64,000 nucleotides of DNA, taken from the NCBI GenBank assembly GCA_963737265.1, contig CAVTRY010000014.1, positions 352,001 to 416,000 of the forward strand, given 5' to 3'. Within the stretch, counting starts at the first letter, position 1. Each line of letters starts with the position of its first letter. Shown in pieces: positions 21,051-55,068 of the stretch. The stretch is from an uncultured delta proteobacterium. GTDB taxonomy: Bacteria; Myxococcota_A; Polyangia; Fen-1088. A model generated the notes under the pieces. The model did no database searches, was not told the DNA's origin, and saw nothing but the letters and a program-made list of their open reading frames with translations. Both the position numbers and the translations under genes were made by a program.

Positions 21051-21057
21051 TTTCTGT

Positions 21058-21085: not shown

Positions 21086-21645
21086 TTGCTAGCAGATGGG
21101 CTTCGGTGAATGGAAAATGGCGTTTGAACGGACTAGTGATGCCTGGAGGTACCCATGAAACCATAAGGTGAAAATCCTGAAGCGGTAGAAGGTCGAAGCC
21201 GCATAGCTTGGGTGGCGCCGAGTAGGGAAATCCTGGCGGCGAAGCCCACCGACAAAGCCCCGCATGGCGGGGTGAGCAAGTGCACGGGCCGTAACGACGA
21301 GTGAACGTCCGGACGAGGCCCCGAGAATAAGAAACCCCGGGTGCCGAGCTGGCCAAGTAGGGGCGAAGGCAGTAGGTGACTCCAAACGCGATCTGCGGAG
21401 GCACCGCCCGGCGGGGTAAAGGACGGCAGCACGCGCTCAAGGTCATGGGAGAAAACAGGGAAGGGCTCCTCGCCCCGTGGAGAAAGCCCACGGAAGCAAG
21501 GTAGCCGCGCGAGCCGGAAGGCGAAGTGCGGTGAAGGCGAGAGCCTGACGGATGGGTCCGTATGAGCGATGAAGCGGGGTAACGCCCGCCGAGCAAAGGG
21601 GCCCTGCCGAAGGCAATCGGAGCAATGAAGCGAGGCAAGAGCGGG

Positions 21646-23125
21646 ATGATAAAGCCCACCATCAGTTTGCAAGAACTTCGAGCGAAGATAGGCCAACGGG
21701 CGAAGTCCGCCCCTGCGCATCGCTTTTGGGGACTACACGTCCACATCATGAAACCGGAAACGCTCGAAGCGGCGTACTTGGAGGCCAAGCGCAATGGCGG
21801 AGCCCCTGGGTCCGACGACGAGACGTTCGAGGCGATTGAGGCGCAGGGCCGAGGAGAGTTTCTCGCGAAACTCGCCGAGGAACTGCGCGCGGACATGTAC
21901 CACCCAAGGCCGTATCGTCGGAGAGAGATTCCCAAGGAGGGCGGCAAAGTCCGCGTGATTTCGATTCCTGCGATTCGAGACCGCGTGGTGCAAGGCGCCC
22001 TCCGGCTTATTGTGGAACCAATCTTCGAAGCCGACTTCTCGGACAGTTCGTATGGGGCGAGGCCGGGACGAAGCGCGCACGAGGCAATCGAGAAAGTGCG
22101 AGTGGGACTGAACCAGGGCCGACACCGCGTGGTCGACGTCGATCTGTCGCGCTACTTCGATACGATTCGGCACGACCGAATCTTGGCGAAGGTGGCAGGG
22201 CGGGTTGTCGACAGCGATGTGCTGGCCATGGTGAAGCAGTTTCTCAAGAGCACGGGCGACCGAGGCGTGCCACAGGGCTCGCCGCTGTCACCCCTTCTCG
22301 CGAATCTTGCGCTCAACGACCTGGACCACGCCCTTGACCGAGGAGCCGGCACCATCACCTATGCCCGATACCTGGACGACATGGCAGGGCCATCGCATCA
22401 TCCTACATCGACGCAGGATCCATCAGAGTCTCGGCCATTTCTGGAAGGTTTTCCCCTGGGGTCGGTGCGCGCGCCGGTGTGCAGGCAGGTTCGGCAGCGC
22501 GCACGGGCGCGGAGACCGGCATAACTATCGGCATCTCCGCAAGATCACTTACAATTTAGATGCGTTGGCCCTGGACGACATGGTCGTGCTCGCGGCCGAC
22601 ACCCCGAAAGGGCGGCAGTGGGCAGACCGAGCGCTGGAGCGTATCCGCCAAGAGGCGGAGGCCATCGGCGTGTCGCTCAACGCAGAGAAGACCCGTTTGG
22701 TTACGATAACGGAGCCAAGGGCCAGCTTCGCGTTTCTGGGATTCGAGTTCCGTTGGGAACGGAGCTCGAAGACTGGAACATGGTATTCGAGCAGAACCCC
22801 GCGACCGAAGAAGGTCATTGCGGTCCTGAAAGAAGTCGGAAACATCCTGCGCCGGAGCCGCCACTTGCCTATGCAAGCGGCAGTGGCGCAGGTGAACCGG
22901 GTCCTGCGGGGCTGGGTGAACTACTTTCGAGTCGGCAACTCGGGGACGGCGTTCGGCAAAATCAAGTACGAGGTCGAGCGCAAGGTGAGGCGACTGGCGG
23001 CCAAGAAGCGCAAGCGCAAGGGATTCGGCTGGAAGCGGTGGAGTAGCGCCGTGGTGTACGGAACGTGGGGTCTCTTTCGAGACTACCGCGTGGTGTACTG
23101 GAACGCGAAAGCATGCCCCAACTGA
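21646..23125 (+). pseudogene. ltrA: group II intron reverse transcriptase/maturase, no En domain, interrupted at YLDD
   Basis: IPAIRDRVVQ, SYGARPGRSAH, VDLSRYFD, GVPQGSPLSP, RYLDD, RGWVNYF. Confidence 0.88.
22385..22573. mobile_element. 189-bp MITE-like element (IS4-like ends)
   Basis: TIR CAGGGCCA(T/A)CGCATC 14/15, 10-bp TSD GACGACATGG. Confidence 0.85.
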
Positions 23126-23335
23126 ACGGACGCATAACCCCGATGGAAGACGCCTTCGCGGTGAGCCGAGATGCGGGAAATCCGCCTGTCCGGTTCGATG
23201 TGGCGGGGGCCGGAGACGGAGTGATGGAACCCCTAAACGGGCACGAAGCCGGAAACGGCCGACACAGCCAAGGGGCGTCCTGCACACCACCGCGCCGGTC
23301 CCCGACCCGACTCCACGTCCATCCCAGGTTAGAGG

Positions 23336-23467
23336 TCCCCCTGTCTCCACGACAAGATATCGGATAGTCCAATGCTCATCATCCAGGAGGAAATTCACTA
23401 CTTTTCCGATATCGCCGTCGTCGGCGCCTACCGCATAACCCTCGATGGCTTTCAAGCTTCGCAACAT
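23336..23467 (-). pseudogene. truncated PRC-barrel protein
   Basis: MLRSLKAIEGYAVGADDGDIGKV..WTIRYLVV paralogous to the start of 29664-30449. Confidence 0.75.
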
Positions 23468-23480
23468 GAGTATTTCCCTT

Positions 23481-25982
23481 TCATCCCGCTGCCGAACCAT
23501 TTTCAACCAAACCGCCAAGAGGAGTCGAACCCTTTGCCCTATGAACCTTCAGGGGATCGAAGATCCGATAGGCCAGCAGTTTCGCGCGGTCATTCACCAT
23601 GAACCAGACCAGCGCATACCCCCAAACGAACAGGGCCCAACCCCAACCGAGAGGTGTCATGAATGCCCCGTAGACCGCGATCAGCGTCGCCAGGATCTGC
23701 GTCCCCAGCACGGCAAGCCACAAGATCCGCGCTGGTCGTATGGACCAGAAAGGACCGCGTGTGCGTGAAAGGAAGATCGTGAGATGGCCCGCCACGGACA
23801 ATTTCAGATACATCAGCGTCTGAATATGGGCGCGGTCGAGATGAAAGACGCGCTCGCCGAGATAGAACAGCCCGAAGGCGGAGACGACCCCGGCCACGCC
23901 CAGGACGGTTGAAACGCCAAGCACCACCGGCATGTTCCAGCTCTCGGGCGAGTCCTTGTAATGAACTTTGTCATACGCAATCGACAGGATGGCGCCATCG
24001 TTCAGCAGGGCCAACATCACGATCATGACCGCGGTCAGTGGATAGAAGTTGAAGACCAGAATCGCCAGGGTCATGAACAGAAGTACGCGGATGGTCTCCG
24101 CGATGCGATAGATGGCGTAACTATTCATGCGCTGGAAGATCCTCCGGCTTTCCTTGATCGCGTCGATGATCACGGTCAGTCCGGGCGTCATCAGCACGAT
24201 GTCCGCCGCCGCGCGCGCCGCGTCCGTGGCGCCCGACACCGCGATGCCACAATCGGCCTTCTTCAGCGCAGGGGCATCATTCACGCCATCGCCGGTCATA
24301 CCGACGATGTGCGCCCGCTGTTGCAGGACATCCACGATGTGGAACTTGTGCTCGGGAAACACCTGGGCGAACCCGTCGGCCTTCTCGATGGATGCCGACA
24401 TGGCAGCCGTTTCGTGCTGCTTGACGTCGCCCAAGCCGCTGGCGTCGAGAATTGCCGAGCCCATGCCGAGCTTCTTGGCCGTCTCCTGGGCGATGGCCAG
24501 TTGATCGCCCGTGACCATCTTGACCGTCACCCCCATCGTGCGCGCGGTGGCGATGGTTGCCTTGGCATCCTCCCGCGGCGGATCGAAGAGCGGCAGAACT
24601 CCGAGGAACTGCCACGGGCCTTCCCCGTCGGCCCGCGCCACGCCGAGCGACCGGAATCCGCGTGCCGCGAACTCGTTCACCGCCTTGTCGACCGCGGCCT
24701 TCACCTGCCCTGCATTGGCCGACAATTCAAGAATCACCTGGGGCGCGCCTTTGGTGACTTTGAATGCCTTGCCATCCTTCGCCTTGATAGCGGCTTCGGT
24801 GCGCTTGTGGACCGGGTCGAACGGCTGAAAATGGACGATTTCGTAGGCCTGCAAGGCATCCGAGCTCTTCAAGCCAGCGAGCACGGCCAGGTCGATGGTG
24901 TCGTTGTTCTCCGCTCGCGACGCCAGCGCGCCGGCAAGAATCACCGCTTCGGCGGAGACATCGTTCACGCTGAACGCGTCGCCCAGCGACAACTTGTTCT
25001 GGGTCAGCGTGCCGGTCTTGTCCGCGCAAATGATGTCGACGCCCGCCAGCTCTTCGATAGCTACCAGCCGGCTCACAATCGCTTCCTTTTGCGCTAGCAA
25101 GCGAGCTCCCACCGCCATGGTCACCGACAGGACCGTGGGCATGGCCACTGGAATCGCCGCCACGGTCAGAACCAGCGCGAACTGCAACGTGGCGAAGAAT
25201 GCGTCGCCGCGATAGATCGCCACGGCGATAATCATCACCACCAGCGCCACGGCCAGAACGATCAGGTAGTTGCCGATCTTGAGCACCGCCTTTTGAAAGT
25301 GGCTGACCGTGTGCGCCTCTTGCACGAGTTGCGCCGTCTTTCCAAAGTACGTGTTCGCGCCGGTCCCATACACCAGGGCGCCGATTTCGCCTTGTCGAAG
25401 GATCGACCCAGAAAACACCGCCTCGCCGGGGCTGCGGGTGGCTGGCAACGACTCCCCCGTCAGCGCGGACTGGTCCACCTCGACCGGATCCCCCTCCAAC
25501 AGGCGAGCATCCGCCGGCACAATGTCGCCCAGACGCAGTCGAATCACGTCGCCAGGCACCAATTCGCGCGCCGCCGGCGTTGTCCACTTCCCGTCCCGCT
25601 TGACGCGAGCCTTGATGGCCAGCTTGGCCTTGAGCGCGGCGATAGCGTTGCCGGCCTGCCGCTCTTCCCAGAACCCGACCACCGAGTTGGCAACCAACAA
25701 GAGAAGGATAATGAAGAAATCCGGCCAATGACCGACGACGCCCGACAGAATGACCGCCACTTCGATCATCCACGGAATAGGTCCCCAAAAATACGACAGG
25801 AACTTCAGGAATGCGTTGGTCTTCTCCTCGGCGATTTCGTTGGGCCCATAGTGTGTCAGCCGCTTTTGCGCCTCGGCCTGGCTGAGTCCGTCCGGCGACG
25901 ACTCTAACCTTGCCAAGAGATCTGGCATGGAAAGGGATTTCAGCTCGTCGTTCTTCGCATCGGCCTTGTTTGGCGCATCCAT
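23481..25982 (-). CDS. plasma-membrane-type proton-efflux P-type ATPase (P3A)
   Basis: LTGES, IPVAMP, DKTGT, FDPVHKRT, KGAP, TGDGVNDAPAL, LLNDG. Confidence 0.93.
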   Translation of the reverse strand: MDAPNKADAKNDELKSLSMPDLLARLESSPDGLSQAEAQKRLTHYGPNEIAEEKTNAFLKFLSYFWGPIPWMIEVAVILSGVVGHWPDFFIILLLLVANSVVGFWEERQAGNAIAALKAKLAIKARVKRDGKWTTPAARELVPGDVIRLRLGDIVPADARLLEGDPVEVDQSALTGESLPATRSPGEAVFSGSILRQGEIGALVYGTGANTYFGKTAQLVQEAHTVSHFQKAVLKIGNYLIVLAVALVVMIIAVAIYRGDAFFATLQFALVLTVAAIPVAMPTVLSVTMAVGARLLAQKEAIVSRLVAIEELAGVDIICADKTGTLTQNKLSLGDAFSVNDVSAEAVILAGALASRAENNDTIDLAVLAGLKSSDALQAYEIVHFQPFDPVHKRTEAAIKAKDGKAFKVTKGAPQVILELSANAGQVKAAVDKAVNEFAARGFRSLGVARADGEGPWQFLGVLPLFDPPREDAKATIATARTMGVTVKMVTGDQLAIAQETAKKLGMGSAILDASGLGDVKQHETAAMSASIEKADGFAQVFPEHKFHIVDVLQQRAHIVGMTGDGVNDAPALKKADCGIAVSGATDAARAAADIVLMTPGLTVIIDAIKESRRIFQRMNSYAIYRIAETIRVLLFMTLAILVFNFYPLTAVMIVMLALLNDGAILSIAYDKVHYKDSPESWNMPVVLGVSTVLGVAGVVSAFGLFYLGERVFHLDRAHIQTLMYLKLSVAGHLTIFLSRTRGPFWSIRPARILWLAVLGTQILATLIAVYGAFMTPLGWGWALFVWGYALVWFMVNDRAKLLAYRIFDPLKVHRAKGSTPLGGLVENGSAAG

Positions 25983-26000
25983 GGGCGACTCCTTTGGAAA

Positions 26001-26122
26001 CTAGCTTGCCGGCTTTGGCCGCAAATCTGGCGTCAGCACGATGTCGATGCGCCGGTTCTTCTTCCGGTTCGCGTCTGCGTCGATATTTCCAGTGTCAGCA
26101 TGGTCAACATCACTTTCTTCAT
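26001..26122 (-). pseudogene. OmpA/MotB-family gene remnant (signal start joined to C-terminus)
   Basis: MKKVMLTML start with RBS; other frame NRKKNRRIDIVLTP. Confidence 0.5.
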
Positions 26123-26550
26123 CGTGCTCTCCTTAGTCGGGACGCCTTGCTGTCTTCACGCGAGATTCGCTTTGTCTCTCCCGATCTGTGCCTCGACGCC
26201 TTGGGAACCTTCACGGTGGGCTTGGAATCAGCCGCCGCCGTGCTCGCTCGCGCTGTTGCGTTCATCGTCAACTCGCGGACGATCAATCTCGTCAGTCGAT
26301 TCACCGCGCGCTCCAGCGCGGCAAGGACATCCGCATCGGTGGTTTCCGCCTTCATCATCCTCGGCAGCTTGAGCTCGACTTCGACTAGGCAGCGCTTGTG
26401 GCCGGTCTTGGTCGAGGCGGCCCAGAATCGAGTGGTCACCCGGCTGATGTGTTCGCCAAATCGCGAAAGTGCAAAGCGCAAACGGAGCTTGACCCCATCA
26501 CGCACCGCTTGCGGAATTTGCATACCGCTCGAACGAATGGCGATTTGCAT
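26119..26550 (-). CDS. HPF/RaiA-family ribosome-associated protein
   Basis: MQIAIR..RLRFALSRF..I.RV..KRCLVEV. Confidence 0.7.
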   Translation of the reverse strand: MQIAIRSSGMQIPQAVRDGVKLRLRFALSRFGEHISRVTTRFWAASTKTGHKRCLVEVELKLPRMMKAETTDADVLAALERAVNRLTRLIVRELTMNATARASTAAADSKPTVKVPKASRHRSGETKRISREDSKASRLRRAR

Positions 26551-26674
26551 TCGGCGTATCTAGTACCTGGTGGCCACGTCGACTAATAGGAAATCCCAGG
26601 TTCCTTTGACGAAAAAAGCGACGGCTTCTCTTTATGACTTGCTGGCGCGGCGAACCGGACCTACCTTTCCCCAC

Positions 26675-27577
26675 GTGGAGTGGCTCAACTACCATCACCT
26701 TCTCTATTTCTGGGTCGCGGCAAAAACCGGGAGCATCGTCGCGGCGACCAAGGAGCTGCATCTATCGCACCCGACCATCAGTGGTCAGATCCATCGCTTG
26801 GAGGAAGTCCTGGGGCAGAAGCTGTTCCTGCGCAAAGGACGAAGTCTGGTTCTGACCGACGCGGGGCGAGTGGCCTATGGCTATGCCGAGGAGATCTTCG
26901 CTCTTGGCCGCGATTTCATGGACACCGTGAAGGGCCGACCGAGCGGGGGTACGCTGCGCCTGGTGGTCGGGGCCAGCGATTCCCTGCCCAAATCCATCGT
27001 GAACCGCATGCTAGAGCCCGCGTTCAAGCTGGAGAAAGGTGTCCGCGTCGTCTATCGCGAAGATCGCACGATCGAATCGTTCCTCGCCGAGCTGGCGTCC
27101 TATTCCATCGACGTCCTACTTACCAATGCACCCGCGGCGTCCGAACTTCCGGTGCGTACCTTTAGCCACCTGCTAGGCGAGTGTGGCACCGCCTTCCTGG
27201 CCGCCCCTGCCCTGGCCAAGGCGTGTCGCCGCCGCTTTCCCATGTCGCTCGACAAGATGCCCTTCTTGGTGCCCAGCAACACTTCCGTCCTGCGCCACGC
27301 CTTGGATGGATGGTTCGATTCCAACGGCATTCGGCCAACCATCGTCGCCGAGCTGGACGACTCGGCCTTGACCCGGGAATGGGGGGAAACCGGGCTCGGC
27401 GTCTTTCCCGTTCCCGACGTCGTGGTCAATGACATCCTGCGACGCTGGGATCTCCAGATTGTGGGCCAGGCACCCGAGCTCAAGCAATCCTTCTATGCCA
27501 TCTCCGTCGAACGCAAGATCCGGCATCCCGCGGTGCTCGCGATCTGCGAGGTCGCGCGCAAGAGCATTTTCGCCTGA
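26675..27577 (+). CDS. nhaR: NhaR-like LysR regulator
   Basis: WLNYHHLLYFW, PTISGQI, DSAL, YAISVERKIRHP; GTG start at 26675. Confidence 0.88.
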   Translation: MEWLNYHHLLYFWVAAKTGSIVAATKELHLSHPTISGQIHRLEEVLGQKLFLRKGRSLVLTDAGRVAYGYAEEIFALGRDFMDTVKGRPSGGTLRLVVGASDSLPKSIVNRMLEPAFKLEKGVRVVYREDRTIESFLAELASYSIDVLLTNAPAASELPVRTFSHLLGECGTAFLAAPALAKACRRRFPMSLDKMPFLVPSNTSVLRHALDGWFDSNGIRPTIVAELDDSALTREWGETGLGVFPVPDVVVNDILRRWDLQIVGQAPELKQSFYAISVERKIRHPAVLAICEVARKSIFA

Positions 27578-27603
27578 AACCGGCGGGCGTGCCTGCAGGG
27601 CGG

Positions 27604-29064: not shown

Positions 29065-29390
29065 TCATCCGCTGCCGAGTGCGGCCGGATCCTGAATCGC
29101 CTCGCGCCGACGCCGCCTCAACCAAGCGAACATGGTTGCTCCCGTTTTGGCGGCATGACGACCGCTGCGACAGCTCTGGACAAGACCACCGCTTCTAGCA
29201 CGGCACGTCCAGCGCGCCAGCGCTTCACCCGCCATGGCCGCCGAGGATTCCTCGCCTCACCTGTCGCATTTTCCTTCCGATGCCGCCGGAATTTCCTTTT
29301 CACACATTCACAAACCATGGGGTAAGAAGCCGCGTGTGTTGGTCGACTGCCTGTCTTCTTCAAGCAAGGCCGACAGCTCAGGAGGTCACG

Positions 29391-29647
29391 ATGGCGACGG
29401 AGAATTCGGTGGTATGCGTGTACAACACCCATCTGGATGCGGAACAAGCAGTCAAGACGCTTCAAACATCCGGCTTCAACATGAAGCAACTCTCGATCGT
29501 TGGGAAGGACTACCACACCGACGAGCACCCCGTTGGGTACTGGCACACGTGACGATGGCGGAAGTATCCAAGGCGAAGGAGATTCTGCAAGGCACCAACC
29601 CTGCGCATTCACCCGGCGCCCGCGTCGAGCGCGCCTTAGTCCTTTGA
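29391..29647 (+). pseudogene. general-stress/DUF1269-like gene with internal deletion
   Basis: MATENSVV.VY.TH..AE.AVK.LQ..GF.MK.LSIVGKDYHT joined out of frame to AEVSKAKEIL. Confidence 0.6.
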
Positions 29648-29663
29648 CGGAGGTATAGGATTC

Positions 29664-30449: not shown

Positions 30450-30459
30450 GCAACAGATC

Positions 30460-34558: not shown

Positions 34559-34668
34559 TCCGCGGCGTAACCGGCGGGCGCGCCCAGCAATGCTGGGAGA
34601 TCAACGGTTGCCATTTCGATAATGGTTATTGCCCACGTCCAATGGGAAGACGACAGCGTCCGACCCGG

Positions 34669-37003
34669 TTACGGGGTTGCCCGCTCTGGAGAAGGATTGT
34701 GCCAGCCGCCGTCTGCCGCGATAAGGGCATCGGCCTCTTTCGGGCCCCAGCTGCCGGGCTGGTAGGGAAGGATCCCGTGGTGCCTCCTCAGGATCGGATC
34801 CACGACCGCCCAGGCTGCCTCCACCGCATCCTCGCGGGTGAAGAGCGCGCCGTCGCCGGCCAGGGCATCACCCAACAGCCGCTCGTAGGGCCTTTCCTCT
34901 CCCGCTTGCTCTTCGAGTAGGTAGAGCTCTCGCTGATCGCCGATGAACTCCTTGCCCGCGCGCTTGACCCGAGCCGCGAGGGCGACGGCCGAGCTGGGCG
35001 AGAGTCGAAAACGCAGGTAATTGGCTCGGCCCGCGCCTGGCTTTGAATCGTCGAAGAGCCGTTGCGGCGGTGGCTTCAATTCCACCAAGACCTCGGCCGC
35101 GGATGTCGCCAGGTACTTTCCCGAACGCAGGTACCACGGCACCCCCGCCCAGCGCCACGAATCGATGAAGAGTCGCAGGGCGCAGTACGTCTCCACATCG
35201 GAGTCTTTGGCCACGCCCGGCTCCATCCGGTATCTGAAGTGGACCCCTTTGGTAGGACCAGAAATGGCCCGAGCTAAGAGAGAGTCCGCGTGGGTTTGTT
35301 TGTAGATCCGGGTGAGCCTCGCCGGCAAGGAAATTGTTGAGAGCGGAGGCATGCTGATGGCTGCTGTCCACGGATGCAATGCGCGCACGGCCCCACAGAA
35401 GCAGGTGAACGCGTTGCAGTTGTGGGCAGCGTGCCATCAGCATGATGCAGCGGCGATTTAGGCGGCCTCTTTCATCGCCGACTTCTTTAGTTCGAATTCG
35501 TAAAACGCTACGGGTGTCTGAAATCCAAGGGTTTGGTGAGGCCGCCTGTGGTTGTACTTGTCCAGGTAGATCGCGATGCCACTGCGGGCGTCGGCCACGT
35601 CTCGGTAGTCGTTCAAGTAGACCTCCTCGCATTTGACAGACCGCCATAGACGCTCGACGAAGATGTTGTCCATGAATCGGCCGCGACCGTCCATGCTGAC
35701 CTTTACGCCCTTGTCCAGCAAAACCGATGTGAAGTTGTCGTCGGTAAACTGCGACCCCTGGTCGGTGTTGAAGATCTCCGGCAAGCCGAAGTTCGCAAGA
35801 GCTTCTTCCACGACCTCGATGCAAAAACGGCTGTCCATCGTGTTTGAAATGCGCCAGGACAGAACCCGGCGCGTGTACCAATCCATCACGGCGACCAGGT
35901 AGCAATGCCCCTGTCTCGTCGGGATGTACGTGATATCCGAGGCCCACACCTGATTGGGCCGAATGATCGCGAGATGGCGCAGCAAGTACGGGAATTTCGT
36001 ATGTTCCGGCGCGGGGACGGTCGTCCGTGGTTTGGGCGCCAGCGCTTCGATGCCCATGATTCGCATCAGTCTCTGCACCCGTTTGCGATTCACCGTCTGC
36101 CCCTGTGCCTTTAGCAACCGTGACAGCTTCCGGCTGCCGAATGCTGGCAATTCGAGATGCAGCTTGTCCAGCTCCTTGCAGATGGCCAGATCTTCCTCTG
36201 CCATCGGCATCGGCTCCCAGTAGATGCCCGATCTCGCAAGATTCAGCAGCTCGCACTGCCGACGGACAGATAGGTCGTTGTGGGGCTCGATCATGGCGCG
36301 CTTCTCCGTCAGCGAATGCGCGCGAGCCCGCGTGCTAAAAAATCATTCTCCAGCGTCAGCTGCCCCACCTTGCGCAGCAATTCCGATTCGCGTTCGGCGT
36401 TCGCCGATTCCTCTGCATTTGCATGGCCTGGTTCGAAAACCATGGCCAGCCGTGTGACGGCTTCCTTCTTCCACTTGTGAACCAGGTTCGGGTTGATCTT
36501 GTATCGGCGCCCGATCTCCACAACCGTTGCCTGCTCCCGCATGGCTTCGAGAGCTACCTGCGCCTTGAAGAGTGCTGTGTGCTTTTGGCGGTTCGTTTTC
36601 ATCGTGTCCTGCCTCGTTGTTGAGGCGGACTACACCTTAGCTCCTGGTCCCATTTTTGGGGTCCACTTCAATCCCGTATACTGGCCGCGGACCACGTCGC
36701 TCGGATGCACAGGGCGCATCGCTTGAAACACCTTCGCCTTCTCGCCGCGGACGGCGCCATAGCCCCTGATACGCCGGCGGCTCCATGGCCAGCAGCGCGA
36801 CGATCTGAAAAAGGTGATTTTGGATGACGTCGCGCAAGCATCCGGCACTCTCGTAAAACGCCCCGCGCCCCTTCACGCCGAAATCCTCGCTGTGCGTAAT
36901 CTGCACGCTGGCCACACAGTCGCGGTTCCAGATCGGCTCGAGAAACGAGTTGGCGAAGCGAAAATAGAGGATATTCATGATCGCCTCTTTGCTGGGTAGG
37001 GGG
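34669..37003 (-). pseudogene. zwf: glucose-6-phosphate dehydrogenase, 5' truncated and split by IS3
   Basis: [25 protein letters not shown]|..ETY, RWAGVP, YERLL. Confidence 0.88.
35235..36670 (-). mobile_element. IS3-family element copy 1 (orfA 36309-36602, orfB 35458-36294)
   Basis: TIR TGAAGTGGACCCC, 3-bp TSD ATC, W.SDITY, TDQGSQF, DN..VER. Confidence 0.95.
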
Positions 37004-37037
37004 ATAGGTTGGGCTAGAACGCCATGTAAGTCTATGT

Positions 37038-37065
37038 AGTTGACGTAATGCTTCTTATCAGACAT
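37038..37065 (-). other. XerC/D dif-like site 2
   Basis: Minus strand ATGTCTGATAA-GAAGCA-TTACGTCAACT. Confidence 0.72.
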
Positions 37066-37094
37066 TGAAAGCAAAGTGGCGCTTGAACGGACTA

Positions 37095-38336
37095 GTGATG
37101 CCTGGAGGTACCCATGAAACCATAAGGTGAAAATCCTGAAGCGGTAGAAGGTCGAAGCCGCATAGCTTGGGTGGCGCCGAGTAGGGAAATCCTGGCGGCG
37201 AAGCCCACCGACAAAGCCCCGCATGGCGGGGTGAGCAAGTGCACGGGCCGTAACGACGAGTGAACGTCCGGACGAGGCCCCGAGATCAAGAAACCCCGGA
37301 CGCCGAGCTGGCTAGTCATTGGCGAAGGCAACAGGCGATTCCGAATGCGATCTGCGGAATCGCCGTCCGGCGGGGTAAAGGACGGCAGCACGTGCACAAG
37401 GACATGGGAGAAAACAGGGAAGGGCTCCTCGCCCCGTGGAGAAAACCCACGGAAGCAAGGTAGCCGCGCGAGCCGGAAGGCGAAGTGCGGTGAAGGCGAG
37501 AGCCTGACGGATGGGTCCGTAGGAGCGACGAAGCGGGGCAACGCCCGCGGAGCAAAGGGACCCTGCCGGAGGCAATCGGAGCAGAGAAGCGAGGCAAGAG
37601 CGGGATGACAAAGCCCACCATCAGTTTGCAAGAACTTCGAGCGAAGATAGGCCAACGGGCGAAGTCCGCCCCTGCGCATCGCTTTTGGGGATTGCACGTC
37701 CACATCATGAAACCGGAAACGCTCGAAGCGGCGTACCTGGAGGCCAAGCGCAATGGCGGAGCCCCTGGGTCCGACGACGAGACGTTCGAGGCGATTGAGG
37801 CGCAGGGCCGAGGAGAGTTTCTCGCGAAACTCGCCGAGGAACTGCGCACGGACGCGTACCACCCGAGGCCGTATCGTCGGAGAGAGATTCCTAAGGAAGG
37901 CGGCAAAGTCCGCGTGATTTCGATTCCTGCGATTCGAGACCGCGTGGTGCAAGGCGCCCTCCGGCTTATTGTGGAACCAATCTTCGAAGCCGACTTCTCG
38001 GACAGTTCGTATGGGGCGAGGCCGGGACGAAGCGCGCACGAGGCAATCGAGAAAGTGCGAGTGGGACTGAACCAGGGCCGACACCGCGTGGTCGACGTCG
38101 ATCTGTCGCGCTACTTCGATACGATTCGGCACGACCGAATCTTGGCGAAGGTGGCAGGGCGGGTTGTCGACAGCGATGTACTGGCCATGGTGAAACAGTT
38201 TCTCAAGAGCACTGGCGACCAAGGCGTGCCACAAGGCTCGCCGCTGTCACCACTCCTCGCGAACCTCGCGCTCGACAACCTGGACCACGCTCTTGACCGA
38301 GGAGGCGACACCATCACCTATGCCCGATACCTGGAC
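37095..38336 (+). mobile_element. group II intron copy 2, 3' half missing (RT fragment 37605-38336)
   Basis: Near-identical to copy 1; cut after RYLD by an IS21 end. Confidence 0.88.
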
Positions 38337-39700
38337 TGTAGACGGCCACAAAAATCCGCGTAAATCCGACCGCCGGGGCGTGGCCACTACTTGGCTTTCT
38401 TCGAGGAATGCGTCTGGGACTTCTGGCGCCAGGAGTCGGCGTCGATGTCGATGACGTGGCAGTGTTGGACGAAGCGGTCGACGAGAGCCACGACGCAAGC
38501 GGCACCTGGAAAGACGGTGCCCCACTGTTTGTACGCCAAGTTGGTGGTGATGACGGTGGATTTGGATTCGTGCCGACGAGAGACGATGTTGTAAAGGAGG
38601 TCGGCAGAGCGGCCGTCGCAGGGCAGGTAGCCAAGCTCGTCGACGATCAAGATGTGCGGGGACAGGTAGCGTTGGCGCATGCACCGTTCGAGCGCGGGCA
38701 AGGATTCGCGTCTGAGCAAGTCGGTGAGTAGCGCTGCCAGGCTGGTGAAGCGGACGGAATAGCCACGAGTCAGGGCCGCGAAGCCGAGATTCTGCGCGAG
38801 GGTGGTCTTGCCGACGCCGCTTTGTCCGCGCAGGAGTACGTTCTCTCCACGCTCGATGAAATCGAGGGTGGCATGGAGGTGTTCGTAAAGGCCGCGGTCG
38901 ATGGAGCGGGGATGGCTTCCAGTCGAAGCCATCGAGGGTGGCGAATTTGCCGAGGGTGGCGAGGCGCGTGCGCGCCAGGAGATTGCGACTGTCGCGTTCG
39001 CGGCGCTCCATCTCGACGAGTTTTTCGCAGACTTCGACCGGGCCGATTCGACTCTTGGTGGTGTGCTCGAAAAAAGCGCGCAACGTCGGCAGCGAGACGC
39101 GAAAGCCGAGCGCTTGCAGTTGCGTGGCGACATCATCGTTTGACATCGTAGCCTCCGAGGTCGTGCGGGATGACGTCTCTGTCAGGGATGTGGTCGCCCA
39201 AGGAGACGTGGATGGGGACGGGATGCTCGGCGGCGCGGCGATGCTTTTCGCACAGGACGCCGACTTCGCCGGGGTCGTGCGTGCCGCGCTCGATGGTTTC
39301 GGCGATGGCTTTGTGTTCCGAGGCGGTGTGAGTGCGGCTGAGCGGCGGGAGATTGTGCTCCCTCCGTGATGGCATCGGTTGGACAATCGCCATCATTCCC
39401 GTCGTGGAAATGTTCATGGCGGCTTGCGGGGAATCAGGGTAGTGGCGGCAGGGAAAGGAGGAGCATCGGCATCTCGCTGGCCGCAGCTATGTAGGTGACC
39501 AGGAGGGCGTATCCACCACCCTGCCTGGTCGTGCTCCGCACCCGACGTGAAAGGAAACGAAAGGAACGGAGCGCTTCAGACAATCGTGCACGGCAAGGTC
39601 GGGGTCAAGCTCTGGTTGGCGGCAGTGCCAGGCGTGGACTTGCTCAGACCGAGCACCTGCCCTCTATGTGGACGAGCTGGCTGTCCGCCGGGAGCAAGTC

Positions 39701-46759: not shown

Positions 46760-46980
46760 GGCGCCCACCGCCACCACACGCCCAGATCCATCTGCCTCCA
46801 ATGGACGCATCGTATGCCCTGACCATCGTCGACGTGTTCGAGCGGGCCATCGCAGCCATCTGGCGTGCCCATGGCGATGCCATCGCCGACCTGCAGGCGT
46901 TGCGCGGGATCGAAACACCCAGGCCCCCTGACGCCGTCTGGGAATCTGTCCCCGACGGCCCTCACGACGACTGCTTCTGA
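46756..46980 (+). CDS. small hypothetical transposon protein
   Basis: ATGA-coupled to the ATPase, identical in copy 2. Confidence 0.65.
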   Translation: MRRPPPPHAQIHLPPMDASYALTIVDVFERAIAAIWRAHGDAIADLQALRGIETPRPPDAVWESVPDGPHDDCF

Positions 46981-48445: not shown

Positions 48446-49881
48446 TGAAGTGGACCCCAAAAATGGGACCAGGAGCTAAGGTGTAGTCCGCCTCAACAAC
48501 GAGGCAGGACACGATGAAAACGAACCGCCAAAAGCACACAGCACTCTTCAAGGCGCAGGTAGCTCTCGAAGCCATGCGGGAGCAGGCAACGGTTGTGGAG
48601 ATCGGGCGCCGATACAAGATCAACCCGAACCTGGTTCACAAGTGGAAGAAGGAAGCCGTCACACGGCTGGCCATGGTTTTCGAACCAGGCCATGCAAATG
48701 CAGAGGAATCGGCGAACGCCGAACGCGAATCGGAATTGCTGCGCAAGGTGGGGCAGCTGACGCTGGAGAATGATTTTTTAGCACGCGGGCTCGCGCGCAT
48801 TCGCTGACGGAGAAGCGCGCCATGATCGAGCCCCACAACGACCTATCTGTCCGTCGGCAGTGCGAGCTGCTGAATCTTGCGAGATCGGGCATCTACTGGG
48901 AGCCGATGCCGATGGCAGAGGAAGATCTGGCCATCTGCAAGGAGCTGGACAAGCTGCATCTCGAATTGCCAGCATTCGGCAGCCGGAAGCTGTCACGGTT
49001 GCTAAAGGCACAGGGGCAGACGGTGAATCGCAAACGGGTGCAGAGACTGATGCGAATCATGGGCATCGAAGCGCTGGCGCCCAAACCACGGACGACCGTG
49101 CCCGCGCCGGAACATACGAAATTCCCGTACTTGCTGCGCCATCTCGCGATCATTCGGCCCAATCAGGTGTGGGCCTCGGATATCACGTACATCCCGATGA
49201 GACAGGGGCATTGCTACCTGGTCGCCGTGATGGATTGGTACACGCGCCGGGTTCTGTCCTGGCGCATTTCAAACACGATGGACAGCCGTTTTTGCATCGA
49301 GGTCGTGGAAGAAGCTCTTGCGAACTTCGGCTTGCCGGAGATCTTCAACACCGACCAGGGGTCGCAGTTTACCGACGACAACTTCACATCGGTTTTGCTG
49401 GACAAGGGCGTAAAGGTCAGCATGGACGGTCGCGGCCGATTCATGGACAACATCTTCGTCGAGCGTCTATGGCGGTCTGTCAAATGCGAGGAGGTCTACT
49501 TGAACGACTACCGAGACGTGGCCGACGCCCGCAGTGGCATCGCGATCTACCTGGACAAGTACAACCACAGGCGGCCTCACCAAACCCTTGGATTTCAGAC
49601 ACCCGTAGCGTTTTACGAATTCGAACTAAAGAAGTCGGCGATGAAAGAGGCCGCCTAAATCGCCGCTGCATCATGCTGATGGCACGCTGCCCACAACTGC
49701 AACGCGTTCACCTGCTTCTGTGGGGCCGTGCGCGCATTGCATCCGTGGACAGCAGCCATCAGCATGCCTCCGCTCTCAACAATTTCCTTGCCGGCGAGGC
49801 TCACCCGGATCTACAAACAAACCCACGCGGACTCTCTCTTAGCTCGGGCCATTTCTGGTCCTACCAAAGGGGTCCACTTCA
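48446..49881 (+). mobile_element. IS3-family element copy 2 (orfA 48514-48807, orfB 48822-49658)
   Basis: Near-identical to copy 1, TSD GGT; inserted in the transposon's terminal hairpin. Confidence 0.95.
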
Positions 49882-49928
49882 GGTGACAGGGTGCCTGTCA
49901 CTTCCGTGATGCCCATCATTGGGTCGGT

Positions 49929-50153
49929 TCAGAAGCAGTCGTCGTGAGGGCCGTCGGGGACAGATTCCCAGACGGCGTCAGGGGGCCTGGGTGTTTCGAT
50001 CCCGCGCAACGCCTGCAGGTCGGCGATGGCATCGCCATGGGCACGCCAGATGGCTGCGATGGCCCGCTCGAACACGTCGACGATGGTCAGGGCATACGAT
50101 GCGTCCATTGGAGGCAGATGGATCTGGGCGTGTGGTGGCGGTGGGCGCCTCAT
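49929..50153 (-). CDS. small hypothetical transposon protein (copy 2)
   Basis: Identical protein to 46756-46980. Confidence 0.65.
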   Translation of the reverse strand: MRRPPPPHAQIHLPPMDASYALTIVDVFERAIAAIWRAHGDAIADLQALRGIETPRPPDAVWESVPDGPHDDCF

Positions 50154-50965
50154 GCTGGATCCCTGGGTTCGGAGTCGACGATACGGGTGATGGCATCGCG
50201 CTCGACGAGTTTTCGCTTTCTGCGGGCGGCGTCGCGAAGGGCGGCGGTGGCGAGCCGGTCGAGGTCGCGCAAAGATCCGGCGGCGGCTTCGTGGAGCATG
50301 GCCAAGGCGTCGGCCGTGACAAGCTCGCGGTCGCAGCCTGATTGTTTGAGTCTGGAGCGAATGTAGTCGGCGGTGTCGTCCGGGGTCAGGGGCGCGACAT
50401 TGAGCCGGGTGTAAATGCGCGAGTACAAGGATCGATTGCGACGGAGGACGAGCCTGTCGGAAAGTTCTGGCAGGCCGACGAGGACGAGGGACAGGAGCGC
50501 CCTACTGTCCCACTGGTAGTTCAGCAAAATGTGCAGATGATCCAGCATGTCTTGGTGGAGCAGGTGGGCCTCATCCAAGAGGAAGACCGGGTGAACACGC
50601 TCGCGGCCAAGATCTTCGACGTGGGAGGAGACGGCGAAGAAGAGAGCCGCGGCGGCGGCGGAAGGCGCGAGCCCCAAGGCGAGACAAAGCTGGCGATAGA
50701 AATCGCGGCGGCCGAGAGTGGCGTTGTGGCAGTAGGTCAGACGGAAACCAGTTTGCGGCAGCCTGTGGCGCAAGGCACGCAGGACGCAGGTTTTGCCGGC
50801 GCCGGGATCGCCAGTGAGGATAATGGACGCACGCTCATGGAGCGCCTCGCACAGCTCGTGTACCAGGGCCTCCTTGGAAGGCGGCATCCACAGGTCGACG
50901 TCGGCAATCTCCTTGGAGAAGGGGGCGCGTTCGAGGGCGAAGTGGCCGAGATAGGCAGGCGTCAT
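50150..50965 (-). CDS. ExeA/TnsC-like AAA ATPase (copy 2)
   Basis: Identical protein to 45944-46759. Confidence 0.92.
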   Translation of the reverse strand: MTPAYLGHFALERAPFSKEIADVDLWMPPSKEALVHELCEALHERASIILTGDPGAGKTCVLRALRHRLPQTGFRLTYCHNATLGRRDFYRQLCLALGLAPSAAAAALFFAVSSHVEDLGRERVHPVFLLDEAHLLHQDMLDHLHILLNYQWDSRALLSLVLVGLPELSDRLVLRRNRSLYSRIYTRLNVAPLTPDDTADYIRSRLKQSGCDRELVTADALAMLHEAAAGSLRDLDRLATAALRDAARRKRKLVERDAITRIVDSEPRDPA

Positions 50966-52326
50966 CGGTCACCTCCTTGTGGCGAAGGGTTTCGGCCGAC
51001 GGCTCGGTCGAGCAGCACGGAGGGCGGATCGAAGGGCACCGGTCGCGAGGCTTTTGTCGCATGTCCCCCGCCACGATTTGAGCGCTTTCGGCGGGCGTTC
51101 TTAGCAGGGTCGACGGGATGAAGAGGCAGCGCCTTTCCCTCGTGCTCGACCCACGGAGCTTCGTTCATGTCGACGAGGCAACGGGCCACCATGACCAGTC
51201 GCCCTGCGAGGAAGCCCTGGTCAAGCTCCCAGTCCGTACCCTCCAGTGGCAGCGTGGTATCTCGGCGTACGCGGCGGCGCACGCGCACGGTCAGCGCCTC
51301 GCGCAGCTTGTGCTCGTCAAAGCGGTCGGTGGGACGTTCGGCTGCCTCGTACACGCGCGCGGGCGCGCGGCCGAGCAGCGACGCGTGCGGCGCCTTGTGG
51401 TAGTGCTCGTCGAGAAAGGCCCACAGTCGCACGTTGATGTCGTGTAACGACGACACCTGGCCAAGAAAGTCGAGACATCCCTGGCGCAGGGTGCGCCAGA
51501 AGCGCTCCATTTTTCCACGTGCCTGCGGGTCGTAGGGACGCGCGTGCAACAGGGAGACGCCCATGCGCGCACAAGCCGTGGACAAGATGTCGCCGCGATA
51601 GGTGCTGCCGTTGTCGAGGTACAAGGCATCGGGTGGCCCATGCCTGCGCAGGGCGCGCACAAACATGCCGAGCATATCCACCTCGCGCTCGGTGTGGTGC
51701 GCTTCCAGCGCGATGATGAAGCGAGAGGCATCGTCGAGAAGTCCGTGAATTCGCACCGGCATGTTTTTGCCGTCGACCGAAATCGCCGGGCCGTAACAGA
51801 CATCACCGTGCCAGAGCGCCCCAGGCCGCTCGGCTTCCCAGCGCAGCCTGGTCTTCGGCCCCTTGCTATCGCGCATGGGAATGCGGTCCAGTCCCTCGTC
51901 GGCGAAAAGCCGCCGCACCGTCGAGGCCGACACCGCGTCCTTGCTCAATCGTCCGTCGAGGGTCAGGGTGCGAAGGATCAAGGGCACCGAAGCCGAGGGG
52001 TGCTCGCGCCGGATGTCGCACAGAAGCGTGCGCTGCTCCGCTGTCAGCTCCTGCGCGCGTCCACTATCGCTGCGTGGTTCGGGGCGCAGGGCATCTAGGC
52101 TTCCAGCTTTGTAGGCGTAGTACCAACGCTCCAGCGTCGGAATGGAGAATCTGCGCGTGCTGTCCGCTCCCGGCGGCCGGTAGCGCTCGGCGGCCAGATC
52201 TTTCAGCGTCGCCGCCAACTCTCCGTGGTCGAGATCTCGCCGGGTGAGTGCGCCGACGATCTCGCTGCGAAAGATGGCTACCTCCTCGGCATGGTCCTTG
52301 GGCTTCAGGCTTTGTAGGTCGGTCAT
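50962..52326 (-). CDS. DDE transposase (copy 2)
   Basis: Identical protein to 44583-45947. Confidence 0.92.
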   Translation of the reverse strand: MTDLQSLKPKDHAEEVAIFRSEIVGALTRRDLDHGELAATLKDLAAERYRPPGADSTRRFSIPTLERWYYAYKAGSLDALRPEPRSDSGRAQELTAEQRTLLCDIRREHPSASVPLILRTLTLDGRLSKDAVSASTVRRLFADEGLDRIPMRDSKGPKTRLRWEAERPGALWHGDVCYGPAISVDGKNMPVRIHGLLDDASRFIIALEAHHTEREVDMLGMFVRALRRHGPPDALYLDNGSTYRGDILSTACARMGVSLLHARPYDPQARGKMERFWRTLRQGCLDFLGQVSSLHDINVRLWAFLDEHYHKAPHASLLGRAPARVYEAAERPTDRFDEHKLREALTVRVRRRVRRDTTLPLEGTDWELDQGFLAGRLVMVARCLVDMNEAPWVEHEGKALPLHPVDPAKNARRKRSNRGGGHATKASRPVPFDPPSVLLDRAVGRNPSPQGGDR

Positions 52327-52443
52327 GGTGTCCCTTCTGCAATCGCGGTGTGCGATGCAGGTAAAGCCATGCTTCATTCCGGCCACGCCTGGCAGGGATC
52401 TTCGCGGGTGGGCGAAGTCCCAGCGACGGGAAAAGTCTGATGG

Positions 52444-53076
52444 TCATCGCATAGCGAGCGTCGCTCCTTGGAAAGCCCGGGTTGCCACAGACGCCTCGTT
52501 CGAGGGCGGCGGCCCGAGTGAAGCGAGTCCCAACGCCGCCCGCTCAGCCGCCTGCCGTGCGGTGAAATCCGACGGCGAAGCGCGCAGTCCGGACAGCAGC
52601 GTGCCCGCACGAATGGCGCGAATCCAGCGCCGCAACGTGGCCCAACCGGTGATGGCGGTCTCGCCGATGATCGTCCGCGGACTCGTCTGTCGCCGCACTT
52701 CCGCAATAGACAATTTCTGCACCCCGAACAAGGCCAACGCCCACCCGACCGCAGACGAGGTGTAAAGCCGTCCCGGTATCGTTTCGCAAGGAACCACGGT
52801 GAGCACGGCGCCGCACTTGCAGAGAAAGCGACGGACGAGCAGCAAGACCATCTTGGGCACTTGCCCCGGTCCTGGCGGTCCCCAAAACTGTCTTGAGCGC
52901 AGCCCGTGCCCGATGATCCCAAGACTTGCTCCCGGCGGACAGCCAGCTCGTCCACATAGAGGGCAGGTGCTCGGTCTGAGCAAGTCCACGCCTGGCACTG
53001 CCGCCAACCAGAGCTTGACCCCGACCTTGCCATGCACGATTGTCTGAAGCGCTCCGTTCCTTTCGTTTCCTTTCAC
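52444..53076 (-). CDS. Zn-finger/HTH accessory protein (DUF6431-like), intact
   Basis: CPLC...HG...RRFLC.CG...T.VP, W.TLRRW; start uncertain. Confidence 0.7.
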   Translation of the reverse strand: MKGNERNGALQTIVHGKVGVKLWLAAVPGVDLLRPSTCPLCGRAGCPPGASLGIIGHGLRSRQFWGPPGPGQVPKMVLLLVRRFLCKCGAVLTVVPCETIPGRLYTSSAVGWALALFGVQKLSIAEVRRQTSPRTIIGETAITGWATLRRWIRAIRAGTLLSGLRASPSDFTARQAAERAALGLASLGPPPSNEASVATRAFQGATLAMR

Positions 53077-53310
53077 GTCGGGTGCGGAGCACGACCAGGC
53101 AGGGTGGTGGATACGCCCTCCTGGTCACCCTACATAGCTGCGGCCAGCGAGATGCCGATGCTCCTCCTTTCCCTGCCGCCACTACCCTGATTCCCCGCAA
53201 GCCGCCATGAACATTTCCACGACGGGAATGATGGCGATTGTCCAACCGATGCCATCACGGAGGGAGCACAATCTCCCGCCGCTCAGCCGCACTCACACCG
53301 CCTCGGAACA

Positions 53311-53917
53311 CCAATCTGCCTTACGATGCCTGGTACGAATTCCTGGGCAACAAGAAGATGGTCGAGGCGCTCCTCGACCGTCTTCGCCAACGCTGCCACA
53401 CCATCATCATCGAGGGCCCTTCGCTGCGCAGCCCCGCAGCCTCGGCAACGCCGTGAAAACCCGACCTCCCATTCGCGTCATCGCGATCCAGATCCCAGCC
53501 CTCTCCACTCACGAGGCGGAGGCACTCATCGACTTTCTCGGGCAGATCCAGGGCGCACTCTGGGACACCTACGGTGCCGCCATCGTCGAGCGCATCACCG
53601 AGGCATCTCCGCCTGTCGCTGACCACCCCAGCAGTCCCTCCGACCCCAGCGACGACAGCACGCCCTTCTGATTCGCCCGTGTCCGGACACCTGCTGCGAC
53701 GGCGCTCACGCCTTGGGCCGGCTGGGGCCTCTGCCATGTGGGCTCTCGGCTGGGGAACGCTGTCTTGGTACCCCGGCCCTCCTGGCCTTGCGGCTTCACC
53801 GCAGGTGCCACAGCTCCTGAATCCACATCCTGATTCAGATCGAGCACCACGATCCGTGATCTAAGCCCGGGTCAATTTCAATGAGCGTCGCTGGGTCAAT
53901 TTCGATGAGCGGCGAAG
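53311..53917 (+). mobile_element. right-hand remnant of another IS21-type element (istB 3' end to 53456, small ORF 53453-53671)
   Basis: TNL.Y..W..FLG....ALLDRL...C....IEGPSLR; tandem end repeats GGGTCAATTTC.ATGAGCG at 53869 and 53893. Confidence 0.75.
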
Positions 53918-54063
53918 GCCAGTTAGCCTCAGAACACGCATCGCTTTCGCATAACCACCAACCTAACCACCTGAGCGAGACGGGGCTGGACGGCCCGAGA
54001 CTCCCTGTGACGGTAAGCCCGCGTCTCTACTCGGTTTCTCGGCGGTGAAGGGGGCCTTTACCC

Positions 54064-54103
54064 CCTTGCCAAGGTGGACGTCGAGGGTTCAAGTCCACCG
54101 CTC
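54064..54103 (+). other. tRNA-Gly(GCC) 3' fragment, att-site remnant
   Basis: CCTTGCCAAGGT.GA.GTCGAGGGTTCAAGTCC...CGCTC: anticodon loop and T-arm without a 5' half. Confidence 0.7.
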
Positions 54104-54243
54104 AGAAGTGTCTTGAATTATTGCTTTTTCTGGCATTGCCGGCGGTGCCTGGCCAAGCCGACGACTATTCACGCTCGACGAGTTTCCGGGTCGTCGCGAG
54201 TCAACTCCGATCTTCTTAGTTGGGGGATCGCCACGAGGGAGTC

Positions 54244-54264
54244 TATAATGTCCCTTAAAGGACA
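54244..54264 (+). promoter_or_regulatory. -10 box and palindromic operator of the TA operon
   Basis: TATAAT followed by TGTCCCTTAAAGGACA. Confidence 0.5.
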
Positions 54265-54271
54265 CACAAAG

Positions 54272-54565
54272 ATGAATCTCATCGCCATCAAGGATCTCAA
54301 GCAACCGCGTCGCTTGAAGGAACGCTTGTCGAACGAGAAGGAACTTCTGCTCACCAGCGATGGCAAACCGGTGGCTGTCTTGGTCAATGTGGGCCCCTTG
54401 GACGACCCCGAGGTGGTCATTCAGGCCGTGCGCGATTCGCGCAGCCGGCTGGCGCTGGCTCGTGTGCGTGATTCGGCGCGGAAAGCCGGGACGAATACGA
54501 TGAGCATGCGGGACATCGAGCGGGAGATTGCAACCGCGCGCCGAGAGCGTGGGATACAGCGATGA
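54272..54565 (+). CDS. Phd/YefM-like antitoxin
   Basis: I.DLK..., LLTSDGKPVAVL, EIATARRER; coupled to the PIN gene. Confidence 0.75.
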   Translation: MNLIAIKDLKQPRRLKERLSNEKELLLTSDGKPVAVLVNVGPLDDPEVVIQAVRDSRSRLALARVRDSARKAGTNTMSMRDIEREIATARRERGIQR

Positions 54566-54975
54566 TTCGGGCTGTGTTCGACACCAACGTCGTGGTGTCG
54601 GGCTTTCTTTCACCGTCAGGTCCGCCCGGCCGAATCGTAGATTGGCTACGAGCAGGCTCTGTCATCGCGGTCGTTGATGAACGAATTCTTGGGGAATATG
54701 CCGAGGTTTTGGTCCGCCCAACCTTTGGGCTGCGACCAGCGGACGTGGACGAGGTGCTCGCCGCGATTCAATCTCGGGTGACATGGGTGGAGGTGGGGCC
54801 CGACGACATGGTGAAACTCCCTGATCCCGATGATGCCGCCTTCGCGGAGTGCGCTCTGGTCGAAAGAGTTCCTCTCGTGACAGGGAACTTGCGCCATTTC
54901 CCGAAGCAAGCCTGTCATGGTCTGCGAATCATGACGCCAGCCGAGTTCGTGCGGTTTGCTGGGGGCGCTCAATGA
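54562..54975 (+). CDS. PIN-domain toxin
   Basis: VFDTNVVVS, EY.EVL, DPDD..F.ECA, VTGN.RHF. Confidence 0.9.
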   Translation: MIRAVFDTNVVVSGFLSPSGPPGRIVDWLRAGSVIAVVDERILGEYAEVLVRPTFGLRPADVDEVLAAIQSRVTWVEVGPDDMVKLPDPDDAAFAECALVERVPLVTGNLRHFPKQACHGLRIMTPAEFVRFAGGAQ

Positions 54976-55027
54976 GGGACGTCCCCCAGAATGAGGAACG
55001 CCCCTCATGAGGGACGAATGAGGGACG
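54973..55027 (+). repeat. TGAGG(G/A)ACG direct repeats (four), possible recombinase arm sites
   Basis: Four copies within 55 bp next to dif-like site 3. Confidence 0.55.
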
Positions 55028-55068
55028 GATCCCGGTGGATAGTCCCTTCAAGCACCACTTTGCTTTCA

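Follow-up and report, generated by a model that had tools for sequence, protein, structure and literature searches.

What directs a group II intron to its insertion sites is the question raised by a 64,000-nt stretch of DNA (the window, to which all plain coordinates refer) from an uncultured delta proteobacterium of the Myxococcota. The window holds two copies of the intron, each a short distance downstream of a 26-nt motif, TTGACGTAATGCTTCTTAYCRGACAT, that is reminiscent of the dif sites of Xer systems, and a third copy of the motif beside an empty target. An earlier note on this DNA proposed that the intron homes beside dif-like sites. Our analysis suggests instead that targeting very probably proceeds by base pairing between intron RNA and target DNA, the dif-like 26-mer being a neighbour without a role in recognition. 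In what follows, G000 is the genome of the window (completeness 99.5%), G001, G002 and G008 are relatives, and L-numbers denote loci; copy 1, copy 2 (c2) and c3 are intron copies in G000, the last of them at the end of a second repeat family.

The three sites share the 12-mer TTGAACGGACTA, which at no more than one mismatch occurs three times in the window (Table 1); the expectation from shuffled sequence is 0.06, and three occurrences were reached in none of 100 shuffles. From the end of the 26-mer to the end of the 12-mer the spacing is 50 nt at site 1 and 29 nt at sites 2 and 3. The coordinates bear out the earlier description of two introns starting directly after the 12-mer, at 50 and 29 nt from the motif, and of an empty third site at 29-nt spacing, where the 12-mer, here TTGAAGGGACTA (one mismatch versus TTGAACGGACTA), runs uninterrupted into TCCAC. 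The same five bases follow intron copy 1, as had also been noticed.

Recognition of the target

A consensus fold of domain I, built from 19 family members, contains 95 pairs, and compensatory changes are seen in 41 of these. In this fold the proposed exon-binding site 1 (EBS1) occupies the terminal loop of a hairpin and EBS2 an internal loop about 20 nt upstream, as EBS1 and EBS2 usually do. The sequence TAGTC of copy 2 (37313-37317), put forward earlier as a candidate EBS1 loop, does lie in that terminal loop of this covariation-supported fold, and EBS2 of the same copy reads GATCAAG (37284-37290). Both match the flank of copy 2, with five of six EBS1 pairs and, by inspection, six of seven EBS2 positions paired.

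The match extends across the family. EBS1 and intron-binding site 1 (IBS1) form five or six of six possible pairs at 25 of 26 distinct junctions, the mean being 5.15 pairs with an intron's own flank versus 3.39 over 600 cross pairings, and at least eight different IBS1 words are matched by changed EBS1 loops. EBS2 covaries in the same manner: GATCAAG is found with CTTGAAC or TTTGATT, AATCGAA with TTCGATT, GATGAAG with CTTCATC, and GATGCAG with CTGCAAC.

The loops of copy 2 yield the target motif YTTGAWY-N-GACTA, followed by T or by the intron. In its strict c2/c3 form the motif occurs 11 times in the genome and not once in a reversed-sequence control; ten of the 11 occurrences lie at the ends of two repeat families, and four of these ten are filled or carry an intron remnant. 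Copy c3, with EBS1 and EBS2 identical to those of copy 2, sits at the end of the second repeat, where there is no 26-mer within 130 nt.

In the mechanism that these observations suggest, EBS1, in the terminal loop of the domain I hairpin, would pair with exon positions -5 to -1, and EBS2, in the adjoining internal loop, with positions of about -13 to -7; position +1 is always T. The sub-lineage with EBS1 UAGUC and EBS2 GAUCAAG matches YTTGAWY-N-GACTA followed by T, which is found in G000 almost only at the conserved outer ends of the two repeat families. By analogy with introns that lack an endonuclease (En) domain, such as RmInt1, the intron RNA would reverse-splice into DNA and synthesis of complementary DNA would be primed from a replication-fork strand. 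The intron would stand 29 or 50 nt from the 26-mer simply because its 13-nt target lies there in the repeat unit.

In relatives the family is most often lodged in a further non-coding context that is likewise repeated and ends in GCTGCAACGGCTTG (L061, L062, L072, L077, L080, L082, and L084 (G001, G008), and G000:C7:244600). No long open reading frame (ORF) runs across this context, and Rfam finds no match in it save, near one locus (L061), a group II intron unrelated to the family (RF02001), which is on the opposite strand and whose match ends some 170 nt upstream.

Several points weigh against recognition by pairing. The EBS1 loop of copy 1 mismatches its own flank, with only two of six pairs (Table 1), and this misfit requires the added assumption of gene conversion, which the mosaic pattern of that copy supports. 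TCCAC follows five of six 3′ junctions in G000, including that of c3, whose 5′ flank comes from the second repeat, and intact ends of the second repeat read TGGTC, not TCCAC; either flanks have been shuffled by recombination between copies, or positions +2 to +5 also matter. Three filled sites in metagenomes are likewise in repeat units, which makes unit ends a recurrent home of the sub-lineage, in a scan whose search pattern demanded a unit-type exon. In principle, gene conversion could also have kept the intron copies more alike than the flanks around them, and pairing-based homing is read from sequence.

In a sliding comparison, nt 201-300 of copy 1 show 19 differences per 100 from c2/c3 and one or two per 100 from another sub-lineage, and elsewhere the pattern is reversed; the patch is clearest at nt 201-300 and runs to about nt 500, with a 98-99% match to the other sub-lineage, and nt 1-200 and 601 onward are c2/c3-like. 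The loops of copy 1 (CAAGTA and GAATAAG) suit the target most often used in relatives (...GGCTTG). To judge from this pattern, the EBS patch most likely stems from gene conversion between intron copies, and as a foreign patch it explains why the earlier note could find an EBS1 match in copy 2 only. The mosaic also weakens any argument from intron identity alone. The family offers a natural series of group II intron retargeting by matched EBS1 and EBS2 changes, including a copy whose guide loops have been overwritten.

Recombination between dispersed intron copies, moving flanks along with them, could also have produced the association with repeat units, with no homing into units at all. It would account for the mosaic of copy 1, for the mixed flanks of c3 (5′ from one repeat family, 3′ TCCAC) and for the intron 5′ remnants found at two repeat ends; we nevertheless hold it to be highly improbable, given that the loops of copy 2 match their flank, that filled units recur in three unrelated metagenome contigs, and that both flanks of copy 1 are of the unit type.

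Table 1. Intron copies, target sites and adjoining features of the window
Feature	Coordinates	Strand	Content or evidence
Site 1, right part of a long-spacer unit copy	21055..21135	+	26-mer 21060-21085; IBS2-IBS1 TTGAACGGACTA 21124-21135
Site 2, short-spacer unit, complete as far as the insertion point	36992..37094	+	26-mer 37040-37065; IBS2-IBS1 37083-37094
Site 3, empty target, right half of unit	55035..55094	-	26-mer 55069-55094; TTGAAGGGACTA 55040-55051; TCCAC 55035-55039
Group II intron copy 1, 2176 nt, full length but defective	21136..23311	+	RF02003; junction comparison
EBS2-equivalent GAATAAG and EBS1 loop CAAGTA of copy 1	21325-21331 and 21354-21359	+	2/6 EBS1-IBS1 pairs with own flank
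N-terminal part of reverse transcriptase ORF (RVT_1), ending in YARYLDDM	21625..22384	+	Domain search
Miniature inverted-repeat transposable element (MITE), about 190 nt long, interrupting the YLDD codons of copy 1	22385..22574	+	13-nt direct repeat CTGGACGACATGG at 22372-22384 and 22571-22583
C-terminal part of reverse transcriptase ORF: end of RVT_1 and maturase GIIM, no endonuclease domain	22571..23125	+	Domain search
Domain-V-like hairpin and long domain VI	23161..23311	+	Weak RF00029 match 23161-23236; domain VI closed by GGGGGCCGG/CCGGUCCCC
3′ exon TCCAC, last bases of unit	23312..23316	+	3′ junction comparison
Group II intron copy 2, 5′ 1242 nt only	37095..38336	+	RF02003; junction
End of IS21-family element, cutting copy 2 within the YLDD codons	38337..39136	-	IstB-like gene 38387-39136; IstB_IS21, E 3.2e-44
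Degraded element with three tyrosine recombinases (RIT-like), splitting the unit at TTGAC (55090-55094)	55095..64000	-	Runs on to G000:C14:~417861

Repeat units, the recombinase trio and the dif-like motif

The 26-mer is the centre of a dispersed repeat of 130-150 nt, the unit, which reads CCTGGGTATAGGGATAG ... GACTATCCAC or GCCTATGCTC and has sharp borders; the intron insertion point lies 5-8 nt inside the right one. Among 41 genomes (G000 and 40 relatives) the unit was found in nine, G000 included, nearly all from the same genus, and its copies lie between unrelated genes. The 26-mer has five copies with up to three mismatches in G000, and more diverged copies occur in G000 and in eight of the 40 relatives. 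Short-spacer and long-spacer variants of the unit are both present in other genomes as well, and some subfamilies keep the ends around an unrelated central sequence.

A second repeat family, present in at least 25 copies across the genome, also houses the intron and is the one that holds c3. Its copies in the window lie at 12185-12276 and 15037-15115 and are followed by a PD-(D/E)XK (PDDEXK_3) nuclease gene. The repeat ends in TTTGATTCGACTA followed by TGGTC, also given as GACGCTCAAAACACCCCTTCGAAATGCCTATGGTC, and its last 18 nt or so resemble the right end of the unit.

Several identities were considered for the unit and rejected. As a structured RNA it has a weak fold (RNAalifold consensus -3 kcal/mol, 1 of 23 pairs compensatory), with no conserved hairpin, and Rfam finds nothing at E ≤0.1 in unit-bearing loci; this rejection holds for the strand tested. 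A small gene is conceivable from the ATG with which the 26-mer begins on the other strand, but some copies have no ATG or contain stops, and codon-position entropies of 0.50, 0.56, and 0.48 (positions 1, 2, and 3) give no third-position excess. There is no array, no hairpin and, by inspection, no GTTRRRY-type core, as an integron attC site would have. The unit is also not the terminal repeat of the recombinase trio described next, which ends in inverted repeats of its own and lies within a split unit; a search of G000 for an autonomous element bounded by both unit ends found only the unit split by the trio.

In G002 (L056, 5424-10245) a unit is interrupted by an element with three adjacent ORFs bearing Phage_integrase or SAM-like domains; the ends of the element, ATTTATGTGGCCTATTT and AAATAGGCCACATAA, form inverted repeats, and a copy of TTGAC flanks it on either side. 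A third such junction, at a different unit copy, occurs in G008 (L055), which brings the total to three unit copies in three genomes. The element in the window is degraded: the 26-mer directly adjoins its right-end inverted repeat, ...AAATAGGCCACATAA, what is left of the third recombinase gene occupies 55163-55504, and nested insertions are carried. Site 3 is the right junction of this element, and the matching left junction is 10.8 kb away, beyond the window. Joining the two ends of the element would give a near-perfect palindrome around TTGAC. To the left of site 1 lies a truncated fragment of a tyrosine-recombinase gene (20900-21085, minus strand; Phage_int_SAM_1, E 0.008).

These junctions indicate that the 26-mer coincides in part with a genuine target of tyrosine recombinases, though in a register other than that of dif, and to that extent the earlier view of the motif as a recombination site stands. 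Its likeness to dif, IMEX and pdif sites of the Xer type consists in a motif of about 26-28 nt, with TAA-N6-TTA spacing, that is used by a tyrosine-recombinase element. It differs in that the motif is multi-copy, not single-copy per replicon as dif is, in that its arms are barely palindromic, and in that recombination was observed only at the 5-bp TTGAC on its outer edge, not in the central spacer. The identity to dif amounts to 16 of 28 positions of the E. coli motif; eight of 200,000 random 28-mers match that motif equally well, from which about 500 are expected per genome. No site in G000 comes closer than nine mismatches to the same motif. The idea of hitch-hiking on Xer-type modules is not supported: sites 2 and 3 bound no such module, and site 3 is half of a unit split by the trio element.

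Whether the 26-mer accompanies the intron elsewhere was assessed at up to seven mismatches within 130 nt 5′ of each intron junction. A survey of 89 family genomes gave 16 distinct junctions, of which two have the 26-mer upstream, both in the window; in a second survey, of other genomes and overlapping in part with the first set, none of the 27 junctions has it. Homologous introns sit in other contexts, so targeting beside dif-like sites is not upheld as a trait of the lineage. The metagenome scan gave three more filled units, one complete and one (L114) with only the last 30 nt or so of the unit and no 26-mer. Nor does the 26-mer appear to be needed, as c3, with identical EBS sequences, and L114 lack it, and unit subfamilies differ in their centres.

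That the lineage recognises a dif-like site, its bound proteins or its structure, homing beside it and riding on Xer-type modules, is in our judgement very doubtful. The idea draws on two independent insertions at a fixed position in units that bear the 26-mer, on the one complete unit among the three metagenomic filled sites, and on the overlap of the 26-mer with a real integration site of a tyrosine-recombinase element. Opposed to these are a spacing that is not fixed (29 or 50 nt), the c3 and L114 sites, the junction counts, a dif likeness at chance level for a genome of such size, and unit subfamilies that keep the target end around another central sequence. A literature search pairing group II introns with dif sites returned no dif-adjacent intron targeting, as judged by titles and the beginnings of abstracts. 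What the earlier note did capture is that homing has occurred more than once at one set position of a conserved module, and that empty sites exist as well.

Comparison of the flanks shows that the two insertions in the window are independent. Over 55 aligned nt the flanks of sites 1 and 2 differ at six positions and by a 21-nt indel, and the adjacent 200 nt of intron differ at two (Fisher p = 0.0016); sites 1 and 2 are long-spacer and short-spacer variants, both old and both present in other genomes. A single insertion later duplicated with its flank, a possibility that the earlier note had itself raised, would fit the identical junction of both sites, the identity of the first 190 nt of the two introns and a region full of rearranged insertion sequences (IS). 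It is nonetheless exceedingly improbable: the flanks have diverged more than the introns, the indel is the spacer difference of old unit subfamilies found in several genomes, and the left flanks are unrelated.

The unit may, rather improbably, be a dispersed attB-like landing pad of Myxococcota for at least two unrelated specialised elements, and the unit and the second repeat may themselves be moved by tyrosine recombinases. On such a pad the RIT-like trio would use TTGAC in the centre of the unit and the intron would use its right edge. If unit and second repeat were moved by a recombinase, the intron would multiply as their passenger and leave the recombination site undisturbed, a weaker form of the hitch-hiking idea. 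In three genomes the trio element joins a dispersed repeat at a defined junction of 5 bp within it, and it offers a concrete attB/attP pair; it may outweigh the intron in usefulness.

Anatomy and state of the intron copies

Both introns match Rfam model RF02003 (group II D1-D4) at 21162-21299 and 37121-37258, each scoring 106.1 bits where the gathering score is 49, and both open with GTGATG directly after the 12-mer, at 21136 and 37095. The consensus at the 5′ boundary of group II introns is GUGYG. Every family copy seen begins instead with GUGAUG, which is a conserved variant of the 5′ consensus and not decay. The 3′ end was placed by comparing six 3′ junctions in G000 with seven in relatives: the common end is ...CCCCGACCCGAC, the next base is T at all 13 junctions, and copy 1 ends in ...GACCCGAC at 23311. 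Upstream of this end a minimum-free-energy fold gives a domain-V-like hairpin and then an unusually long domain VI stem of about 100 nt, with an unpaired A, the candidate branch point (placed by inspection only), 7 nt before the splice site. The domain V model RF00029 stays below its gathering score of 40 throughout, with 28.7 bits in the window and 35.8-39.9 bits in relatives.

In intact relatives the introns are 1974-1979 nt long with an ORF of 426-430 aa, and the ribozyme without its ORF measures about 680 nt. An intact 427-aa relative contains RVT_1 and GIIM only and ends 21 residues past GIIM, with no endonuclease domain. The atypical GTGATG start, the YLDD motif (YARYLDDM) and the lack of an endonuclease domain described in the earlier note were all found again here.

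The MITE of copy 1, which splits its reverse transcriptase (RT), has at least 18 further near-identical copies in the genome. The IS21-family insertion in copy 2 lies only 7 nt from the position of that MITE, in the same YLDD codons. The family has five 5′ junctions and six 3′ junctions in G000, and no match there spans RT residues 1-427. All family copies in the genome are dead, the RT being broken in each, and for this reason site 3 and six other unit ends would still be empty. Two repeat ends (G000:C14:431198-431241 and G000:C20:~39309) still bear the first 7-8 nt of the intron, GTGATGC[C], the former followed by a duplicated target and then by a full intron copy; we read these remnants as traces of introns that once inserted there and were lost. 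G000 also has a second group II intron family, unrelated to the first, which, with an RT 33% identical and open frames of 486 aa, gives four equal-score matches (G000:C14:93782, C17:97828, C11:1168870, and C7:298811) and looks intact.

Comparison with known systems and neighbouring mobile DNA

Among solved structures the RT is closest to those of IIC introns (6ar1, E 8.7e-55; 7uim, E 1.9e-53). Class C introns target terminators and integron attC sites. The family resembles them in its insertion beside a tyrosine-recombinase site and in an RT without an En domain; it differs in its covarying EBS2 and in a ribozyme much larger than about 400 nt. IIC introns have no EBS2 and have a stem-loop directly upstream of IBS1, and no conserved stem-loop precedes the insertion point in the window family.

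The ribozymes of groups IIE and IIF are described as small and IIB-like, of 450-700 nt, with long D6 stems in IIF (PMC3753933, PMC3552965), and M.xa.I1 of Myxococcus xanthus has been placed in F/g2. A ribozyme of about 680 nt, the lack of En, the covarying EBS2-IBS2 pairing and a long D6 liken the window family to classes E and F, a likeness drawn from published descriptions.

The behaviour of the family is closest to that of RmInt1, RmInt2 and Sr.md.I1, class D introns of Sinorhizobium. RmInt2, which is En-less, is reported to sit in the inverted repeats of ISRm17, giving it several sites per genome (PMC4615759). Common to these introns and the window family are an RT/maturase without an endonuclease domain, homing sites in multi-copy mobile DNA, and a target set by EBS1, EBS2 and EBS3 pairing, with EBS changed in related introns for different repeats. 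The window family differs in belonging to another host phylum, in targeting the border of a short dispersed repeat that is non-coding, where the others use an IS with a transposase, in its GUGAUG 5′ end, and in its unusually long domain VI. The class D C-terminal motif given in the same source, LX3AX3PXLF[V/A]HW (PMC4615759), is not visible by inspection in the C-terminus of the intact relative, and no phylogeny was made. An endonuclease-less intron family that colonises conserved ends of repeated DNA, as RmInt2 does, is a fairly ordinary case; here again such introns persist by this means.

RIT elements (recombinases in trio) are described as having 34-bp terminal inverted repeats, with mobility and choice of target unproven (PMC10214605, PMC3414803). 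The element in G002 resembles them in its three adjacent tyrosine-recombinase genes bounded by terminal inverted repeats; it is specific in its target, having entered three copies of the dispersed unit at TTGAC, the copy in the window is degraded, and the RIT-like assignment is by gene trio and ends.

The surroundings of the introns are a graveyard of mobile DNA. Inverted IS copies of 100% identity are nested between sites 2 and 3 (35234-36671/48445-49882, 39701-41352/59090-60741, and 43983-47028/49881-52926), with rve/Mu-type transposases and IS21-type pairs. A gene for a large serine recombinase of 757 aa lies at 17048-19321 on the minus strand, and an ORF at 20158-21039 on the plus strand has the same C-terminal domains (zinc ribbon and HTH_17) and may be a rearranged fragment.

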